64,000 nucleotides of DNA, taken from the IMG/VR virus record IMGVR_UViG_3300013132_000039, positions 1 through 64,000 of that record; one strand, written 5' to 3'. Numbering within the stretch: position 1 is the first letter of the stretch; the number at the start of each line of letters is the position of its first letter. Below, piece after piece: positions 1 to 8,518 of this stretch. The translations under genes were made by a program, and so were the position numbers. The notes below the pieces were generated by a model that did not search any database, was not told the DNA's origin, and saw only the letters and a list, made by a program, of their open reading frames with translations. Source of the stretch: a virus.

Positions 1-363
1 AATTTAACCAACAATAGAAAATACATAGGCAAAAAATTAGCCAAGTTCGCCAAGACCACTGTTCGTGTAGTCAAATTAAAAAATGGTAACAAGCGAAAGA
101 AACGCATCAGAGGCAAGGTAGAAAGTGATTGGAAGGACTATTATGGATCCAACGATCAACTACAGGCAGACGTAGCACAGCTAGGCACAGATAAATTTCG
201 TAGAGACATACTTTATTTTTGTAAAACCAAGGCAGAGTGTAGTTATATTGAGGCAAGAGAGCAATTCTCCAGGCGTGTATTAGAATCAGACGACTACTAT
301 AACGGACACATTCAGGTCCGTGTTCATGGCTCACACATCAAAGGCAAACAATTAAACGGTTAA
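1..363 (+). CDS. Small GIY-YIG family endonuclease (Seg-like), 5'-truncated by the window edge
   Basis: Not in the ORF track. Frame 1 reads NLTNNRKYIGKK...ESDWKDYYGS...FRRDILYFC...SYIEAREQF...YYNGHI to TAA at 361-363. The YIG motif, a conserved Glu helix and YN are typical of GIY-YIG domains. Confidence 0.8.
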   Translation, partial: NLTNNRKYIGKKLAKFAKTTVRVVKLKNGNKRKKRIRGKVESDWKDYYGSNDQLQADVAQLGTDKFRRDILYFCKTKAECSYIEAREQFSRRVLESDDYYNGHIQVRVHGSHIKGKQLNG

Positions 364-780
364 AAGCTAGCGCAGGCTAATTTCGTGCGCCCTAGACCTG
401 GACAATCGTATCACAGGGATGGAATCTTGCCGCCGTAGCAAGAACTCAACCACTACCTCTCGGAGATGAAGACAGTTTAAGACCTACTGTTTGGTTGTTT
501 GAAAAGGATTAAAAGGCCAAAAGAAGGGTAATTCCCTAACGGACATATGCTTGATAGCATAGGTGTATGCTCCTGCCGTCGTGATAAAAACGCTGCTCGT
601 GGTACCGGACGACCGCCACTGTAACGCAGTAATGCTATGTGACTCGAGTACTCGGATAATGCGGAGTCGAATTTTGCCCTTAACGGGCAAAATGTGACTG
701 TCATATCTGGATAATATTAAATCACTTCGTGAAGAAATACGTTCGAGCGCAAGCGAAGAACAGTTGAACTACGTTCAACT
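364..780 (+). ncRNA. Candidate large structured non-coding element (ncRNA and/or replication origin)
   Basis: About 46% GC by hand count over 361-780, against very AT-rich intergenic DNA elsewhere. No credible ORF. More than 10 consecutive stems, e.g. 425-430/438-443, 447-452/492-497, 472-476/486-490, 599-602/616-619, 671-679/685-693, 762-769/773-780. Confidence 0.6.
637..715 (+). repeat. Two copies of the bipartite motif ATGTGACT-N9-GGATAAT flanking a 9-bp hairpin
   Basis: 637-660 is ATGTGACT cgagtactc GGATAAT; 692-715 is ATGTGACT gtcatatct GGATAAT; hairpin 671-693 lies between them. Confidence 0.85.
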
Positions 781-784
781 CTAA

Positions 785-790
785 TAAATA
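785..790 (+). promoter_or_regulatory. T4-type late promoter core (TAAATA)
   Basis: AATAAATA, 7 nt before ATG 798, no Shine-Dalgarno. Confidence 0.65.
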
Positions 791-8250: not shown

Positions 8251-8253
8251 ATA
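8246..8253 (+). promoter_or_regulatory. T4-type late promoter TATAAATA
   Basis: Perfect consensus, 5 nt upstream of ATG 8259. Confidence 0.75.
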
Positions 8254-8258
8254 TTTTT

Positions 8259-8498
8259 ATGATATTGCGTGAACTATTTTACAGAGATCAATCACAGCCA
8301 ATTGGGTTTGGCGATCTCGCCTACAATCCTAGTCGTGATACAGACGTTATGAAGCGCAGTGATACTCGTAAAACTAGACTAACACTAAAACAAATTAACG
8401 AACTGCGCAAAGCCAGCGAACAACATATATTAGAGCAAGAAAAAGATTTAGAATTTATTGAATCAATGTATAAACCACCTCCTGCACCTGCGGCATAA
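8259..8498 (+). CDS. Conserved hypothetical head-region protein
   Basis: 79 aa ORF behind a late promoter; DTRKTRLTLKQINELRK. Confidence 0.7.
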   Translation: MILRELFYRDQSQPIGFGDLAYNPSRDTDVMKRSDTRKTRLTLKQINELRKASEQHILEQEKDLEFIESMYKPPPAPAA

Positions 8499-8518
8499 TT
8501 ATTCAAAAAGGACAATAT

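Follow-up and report, generated by a model that had tools for sequence, protein, structure and literature searches.

We examined the start of a 64,000-nt stretch of viral DNA (IMG/VR record IMGVR_UViG_3300013132_000039, positions 1 to 64,000; hereafter the window), where the 3' part of a GIY-YIG nuclease gene is followed by a long structured element lying between this gene and the next (798–1766). Because portal, major head, sheath and terminase families were matched among the 16 open reading frames (ORFs) scanned, the window was assigned to a T4-like phage, relatives of which reach 345–347 kb. The window begins where the contig begins and the nuclease ORF is open at its 5' end; the full-length protein of 145 amino acids was supplied by a 98% identical relative (locus L001), in which the nuclease is preceded by gp47, gp46 and an ORF of 85 amino acids. 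As an initial annotation of the sequence had noted, GC content rises behind the stop codon (0.460 over 364–780 versus 0.367 window-wide) and no gap in the window exceeds the one there (364–797, 434 nt), the runner-up being an ORF-free gap of 268 nt 3' of the portal gene (8251–8518). The T4-late-type motif that bounds the element (Table 1) was found upstream of 18 of the 57 window ORFs (1.3 expected), and a scan for tRNA and tmRNA genes returned none.

The element is a known Rfam motif extended threefold. Its 5' third matches the full model (1–141) of Polynucleobacter-1 RNA (RF01718), the sole Rfam match in a cmscan of the whole window, and nothing else credible was found over 300–900 at E ≤ 10, whereas the conserved element continues for ~285 nt beyond the model, to 780. 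The initial annotation had suggested an undescribed class of non-coding RNA (ncRNA). Outside 365–500 the element matches no Rfam family; at full length it appears to be undescribed in Rfam and in the literature searched, which included few subscription journals. The RF01718 motif, classed by Rfam as sRNA, comes from Weinberg 2010 (PMC2864571, available part). By blastn, no match to the element was found among cultured phages and plasmids, and a DNA search of four cultured phage genomes also gave none, with the positive control (genome G007) likewise missed. A core-motif search of genome contigs gave 120 matches, nearly all attributable to chance, and only four short contigs of metagenome-assembled genomes scored with the module profile.

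Of 165 homologues with sufficient flank, 106 remained after de-duplication (mean identity 61%); across these, conservation spans ~365–785, and mutual information revealed Watson-Crick covariation in all major helices and in two pseudoknots. In a separate 22-row alignment of 500–785, 30 of 43 named pairs vary on both sides, and its score (0.436) was reached by none of 500 shuffles and compares with 0.09–0.17 for slid registers, although these controls lean in favour of the structure because related data went into deriving it. On its own, the single sequence folds just modestly better than chance (z −1.87, 2 of 100 shuffles); it is the covariation among homologues that makes the folded structure real, and the element is thus a conserved structured one. 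Ten of the eleven stems listed in the initial annotation are fully complementary as given, while 541–551/562–573 pairs only in another register with a bulge; the major helices covary, but 641–645/664–668 (162 paired, 137 unpaired and 231 gapped cells) and 525–528/534–537 (224 paired and 194 unpaired cells) are poorly conserved, and the pseudoknots, a direct-repeat pair and the 3' hairpins at 722–780 had been overlooked. Several 5' helices show an excess of G.T over A.C (141:8, 55:6, 34:4 and 60:26).

Table 1. Features at the start of the window (positions of the window; T1 and T2 denote the two 3'-most hairpins).
Positions	Strand	Feature	Evidence
1–363	+	3' part (residues 26–145) of a single-domain SegE-like GIY-YIG nuclease gene, phrog_447	ORF, Pfam, PHROG, relative L001, models
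365–500	+	Rfam RF01718 Polynucleobacter-1 RNA; 5' third of the element, architecture type A	100.1 bits against a gathering threshold of 37, E 1.9e-20
541–573	+	Long hairpin; loop 554–559 forms pseudoknot 1 with 633–638	All 6 pseudoknot pairs change on both sides
578–630	+	Most conserved core: hairpin 599–619, loop 609–613 forming pseudoknot 2 with 578–582; closed by 592–596/626–630	Covariation 580/611, 600/618, 593/629
639–661	+	Direct repeat, copy 1; variable core 654–660	Same-letter covariation at +55
671–693	+	Hairpin between the repeats	Covariation alignment
694–716	+	Direct repeat, copy 2; variable core 709–715; 47–60 nt from copy 1 in homologues	Repeat scans
722–732	+	Small hairpin with TTC loop, a GAA-type mini-hairpin on the minus strand; optional	CTTCG followed by C or T in 51/106
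741–761	+	Hairpin T1 with tandem G.A mismatches and GN(N)A loop; same motif in ColE1 at 1332	Covariation, pattern scan
762–780	+	Terminal perfect hairpin T2	Loop C-GN(N)A-G on + in 73/106 homologues, on − in 2 (the window's own reads on −)
785–790	+	TAAATA, T4-late-type promoter motif of the next gene; 3' bound of the element	Motif scan

The two repeat copies are tied together by same-letter covariation between columns 55 nt apart (654/709, 658/713, 660/715, 655/710 and 639/694). A hexamer is identical in both copies in all 100 of the 106 homologues that could be parsed, 118 of 120 hits were concordant in a scan that did not constrain the variable positions (both discordant hits lacking every other feature of the element), and in 108 of 110 distinct modules the copies are identical at three unconstrained positions, against 18.3 expected. 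Position 654 has changed at least 22 times on a tree of 93 nuclease proteins. No third copy or complement was found within 1.5 kb, and no nuclease residue covaries with position 654, while for position 658 the sole association is at the level of clades and involves the variable C-terminus. This repeated concerted change, given the lack of both a further partner in cis and a tracking nuclease residue, suggests that the copies interact directly, through pairing or copying; a same-letter signature of this kind would arise if an RNA of copy 1 paired with the template strand at copy 2. One genuine discordant element (L592) was seen by eye, and L083 seems to have lost, after the core motif, one repeat unit together with the hairpin between the repeats.

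Loops of the 3' hairpins appear to be of a DNA type. T1 loops have no GNRA preference (29 GNRA, 24 GNYA), T2 has no excess of G.T over A.C (19:18), and C-G-closed GNA loops are unusually stable in DNA. The C-GNA-G loop of the terminal hairpin lies on opposite strands in the window (769–773) and in its near-identical relative (L001:3770–3774). A scan for the strict T1 pattern found one occurrence in the 64-kb window (745) and one in ColE1, the latter on the RNA II strand, opposite RNA I, ~135 nt past the origin region; as a chance rate, two other matches were found in 347 kb. We take this ColE1 hairpin, unannotated in the ColE1 record, to be the PriA site, and the phiX174 F-G spacer, presumably the primosome assembly site (pas) of that phage, carries GCGAAGC.

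Adjacency of nuclease and element is tight in this clade. Among the closest 80 loci collected from the gene, the element is adjacent in 59, further off in 9 and absent in 2, with 10 too short; of the 120 loci collected from the motif, 80 were taken with long flanks, and of these 63 have the element adjacent, 9 at 1.0–1.3 kb and 3 not within 1.5 kb, with 5 too short (the two sets have contigs in common). Such adjacency, together with the basic beta-hairpin of the protein, is what recommends the proposal of the initial annotation, a GIY-YIG ribonucleoprotein that is RNA-guided or RNA-bound like IscB/TnpB omegaRNA or HEARO. Further genes, however, intervene between nuclease and element in 9 loci, and in G011 and G012 a RusA/Hjc-like resolvase (phrog_244) occupies the nuclease slot. 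Among 80 resolvase loci (a set holding many near-duplicates), the strict module was found in 22 and a GIY-YIG gene within 4 kb in none; by profile, the element is adjacent in 41, further off in 5 and absent in 33, with 1 too short, several of these matches being weak and due to the 3' hairpins. RF01718 itself matched at 3 resolvase loci (L572, L573 and L576) among the 13 loci scanned. Types B and C, two other architectures that have the 3' module in common with type A but give no RF01718 match, are found, like type A, with both nucleases (more divergent architectures are visible), and the three are interleaved on the GIY-YIG tree, where they need 15 changes against a minimum of 2; they are clustered (shuffles need 40), on a short alignment with many open forks.

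The linkage is therefore positional and not obligate, as the element also adjoins a resolvase or no nuclease and cultured relatives of the nuclease lack a long gap; an element that accompanies an unrelated nuclease, or no nuclease at all, is very unlikely to be a guide RNA for this one. OMEGA (IscB/TnpB) and HEARO likewise place a compact nuclease beside a large structured element, but in a system of that kind the RNA would be expected solely with its nuclease family and its architecture would be expected to follow the protein tree, whereas here the association is not obligate, the element is not limited to one protein family and its architectures depart from the nuclease tree; neither mobile-element ends nor a variable guide segment was seen, and the two complete 345–347 kb genomes carry one nuclease gene and one module each. 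The initial annotation had named a confident Rfam match as counting against its proposal, and one was found for the 5' third. We thus regard the ribonucleoprotein as scarcely credible; what survives of that interpretation is that the element is large, conserved and structured and, within the clade, closely linked to the nuclease gene, and the origin of replication that it listed as its main alternative is the better supported of the two.

The nuclease matches Pfam SegE_GIY-YIG (E 7e-25) and phrog_447, a family with relatives in 464 phage records that carries the mis-annotation 'NAD synthetase', and G19-F-V-Y22, Y33-I-G35, E109 and N126 are invariant among 23 aligned sequences, which covers the GIY and YIG motifs and the conserved Glu and Asn. 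An alignment-based AlphaFold model (predicted local distance difference test, pLDDT, 82; 36 in a single-sequence run) has the GIY-YIG fold when compared with the I-TevI catalytic domain (1ln0; Z 7.9, root-mean-square deviation 2.4, 78 aligned), although a Foldseek search with the model gave no match at E ≤ 0.001 and a sequence search of the PDB returned nothing. SegE-like phrog_447 proteins, the I-TevI catalytic domain and Ssn have in common a single domain of this fold; the window nuclease lacks C-terminal DNA-binding modules and is replaced by a resolvase in sister phages. Its basic insert, a predicted beta-hairpin (residues 40–66), and its compact size had been read as hints of an RNA partner, a reading undermined by four cultured relatives in which the same compact protein with the basic hairpin is followed by a gap of at most ~150 nt.

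Wherever checked, in the loci as well as in two complete genomes, phrog_244 and phrog_447 were mutually exclusive (the two complete GIY-YIG genomes lack phrog_244), which suggests that phrog_447 resolves branched DNA. The GIY-YIG gene simply adjoins the element where the recombination cluster ends, and since a RusA/Hjc-like resolvase can take its slot, the GIY-YIG protein is probably a branched-DNA nuclease; with Slx1 reaching only Z 3.3 against the model, a resolvase role depends solely on this gene replacement. The replacement occurs after gp46, for example at L487:11138–11650 (−) and L488:11077–11580 (−), and in loci L569–L648. At L581, L606, L624 and L636, a short (~100-nt) conserved-looking structured motif directly follows the resolvase stop in place of the long element.

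Type C elements were also found in three phages of 30–31 kb (G014, G015 and G016; CheckV 100% complete). G014 has no GIY-YIG gene, nor have the small-phage loci L502, L504, L532 and L547 in the locus DNA available, and in G015 and G016 the gene lies 3' of the element. ORFs scanned in the three genomes match packaging, head, tail and methylase families, and no polymerase, primase, helicase or initiator was found among them (in G014 and G015 mainly non-tail ORFs were scanned, many without a family match). Of 12 small-phage loci, 8 (4 of them near-copies) have TAAATA at 376–402 nt upstream of the repeats, and a late sigma factor is encoded by G006 and G007 and was not found in G014–G016, so that the 30-kb phages may possibly be satellites of T4-like jumbo phages. 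The motif also precedes some other genes of G014–G016 (L482–L485, L650–L651), in 3 of 33 and 5 of 36 ORFs against 0.4 and 1.5 expected. The element is not universal in the small-phage terminase family, as terminase-related loci yielded the strict module in 7 of 80 (many short) and a looser pattern in 12. In a small phage without the element, a protein of 362 amino acids lies 3' of the corresponding gap (L557:1640–2725); it is a candidate initiator, for which the family look-up gave no named family. A search for Endonuclease VII in five genomes gave no match over the cut-off, and no control genome was matched either.

These distributions bear on what the element might do. A DNA site on which the adjacent nuclease (GIY-YIG or resolvase) acts in concatemer resolution, packaging initiation or recombination would explain why nucleases from two unrelated families adjoin it and why GIY-YIG lies just 3' of it in some small phages, and Ssn nucleases, which cut flanking single-stranded DNA (ssDNA) hairpins (PMC11893778, available part), offer a precedent. 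Ssn genes are flanked by multicopy hairpin repeats, however, whereas the window gene is not, with one module per complete genome and one strict T1 in the window. Such a site seems improbable given that the element persists without either nuclease (G014 and the four small-phage loci above), that two unrelated folds would need to read one site, that no protein residue follows the repeat variant and that the 280-nt wobble-rich, pseudoknotted part would be superfluous. Regulation or attenuation of the gp47-gp46-nuclease mRNA from its 3' untranslated region is less probable still: in large phages the element does lie on the same strand at the end of the cluster, and the motif is marked possibly cis-regulatory in a table of Weinberg 2010 (PMC2864571, available part), but no terminator-like site was found in 1–1000, and small phages carry the element away from these genes with a promoter motif of its own. 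In G001 a type B element has been relocated among unrelated genes (L445:7471–8078), preceded by short tandem AGGCACA-type repeats, on a 92-kb contig (26% complete) with no GIY-YIG or resolvase match.

A free large ncRNA acting in trans, or a ribozyme or scaffold like GOLLD, ROOL or OLE, would use the 3' hairpins to stabilise its end, with the repeats serving as binding sites or making symmetric tertiary contacts. We consider this unlikely, if less so than a nuclease-processed site: the size, two pseudoknots and invariant unpaired bases would suit such an RNA, as would the promoter motif in small phages and the sRNA typing of the 5' third, but several unrelated 5' folds have only the 3' repeat-hairpin module in common, the repeats change in concert without a partner in cis, and the 3' loops appear DNA-like. 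The RNA data consist of low-depth contigs, so neither transcript level nor ends can be read from them.

We favour, at about an even chance, a cis-acting RNA-primed (R-loop) replication origin comparable to ColE1 RNA II plus pas, or to T4 oriF. The + strand would be transcribed by read-through from the gp47-gp46-nuclease cluster in large phages, and from the TAAATA promoter ~390 nt upstream of the repeats in small ones, and 364–640, whose structure is evident from covariation, would fold as a doubly pseudoknotted RNA. Repeat 1 of this RNA would pair with the template strand at repeat 2, as the same-letter covariation suggests, and nucleate a persistent RNA-DNA hybrid, the processed 3' end of which would prime leading-strand synthesis; the displaced + strand would then fold T1 and T2 as DNA mini-hairpins that could load a primosome or helicase. 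Points that we count towards an origin are the single copy in two large genomes, the presence in 30–31 kb phages without recognised replication genes, the concerted repeats, the contrast between wobble-rich 5' helices and seemingly DNA-type 3' hairpins, and the T1 hairpin common with ColE1.

The ColE1 system (RNA II preprimer with n'-pas/ssiA) has the one-strand order that we propose for the window element, namely a long folded RNA, a hybrid-forming region and a downstream ssDNA hairpin, and both have a GA-GC-loop-GC-GA hairpin; unlike ColE1, the window element has repeats 47–60 nt apart around a hairpin, places T1 only ~25–60 nt past repeat 2 and is carried by phages. R-loop mechanisms of ColE1 and T4 are described in the available parts of PMC3640518, PMC3167613 and PMC3016281, the last of which describes T4 origins as ~100 bp, with a middle promoter and an A+T-rich unwinding element but no sequence requirement. 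Both T4 oriF/oriG and the window element belong to T4-like phages, with transcript-primed initiation proposed, but the latter is long, conserved and structured.

Several observations weigh against an RNA-primed origin. T4 origins need no elaborate RNA fold (PMC3016281, available part). Three helices lack a wobble bias (P2 18:19, P3 16:23, pseudoknot 2 4:33), and antiparallel pairing between the repeats is possible in types A and B (560 of 630 ungapped cells, in largely invariant columns), although it breaks in ACAT/GCAT variants. The T1-ColE1 match was spotted post hoc, and beyond its 12-nt motif neither ColE1 nor any plasmid resembles the element in sequence: the window has no match to RF00106 (RNA I), the module profile misses ColE1, no plasmid was matched and no antisense RNA I analogue was seen. 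In ColE1 the RNA pairs with its template between two G6 runs, both visible in the ColE1 record, a parallel for which we found no printed source. Metatranscriptome contigs, from 4 of 7 listed runs (share 0.04–0.14), are of low depth, cover gene and element alike and reach only ~643, beyond which the only piece (947–1000) proves nothing. In the two complete genomes, GC skew tracks the strand on which genes lie and does not clearly switch at the element, and a hidden initiator is possible in the small phages because most of their ORFs have no family match.

More tentatively, interchangeable pseudoknotted primer RNAs with a self-matching repeat pair may form the origin of many uncultured aquatic T4-like jumbo phages, and of satellite 30-kb phages riding jumbo transcription and replisome. 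If the element is such an origin, an orphan Rfam motif of 2010 would gain a function and its true length, jumbo phages, whose origins are unmapped, would prove to use structured primer RNAs in the manner of ColE1, and a class of satellite phages might come into view. Whether or not it is an origin, the swap between phrog_447 and the resolvase offers a testable prediction for a widespread T4-like protein, and one false lead is removed from the mining of RNA-guided nucleases.

Other structured DNA occupies the same slots. Further unrelated architectures of 400–700 nt ending in T1/T2-like hairpins were seen 3' of the resolvase at L604, L607, L626 and L633, and likewise at L512:2750–3530, L529:700–1560 and L544:6960–7680, and some of these own a repeat pair.
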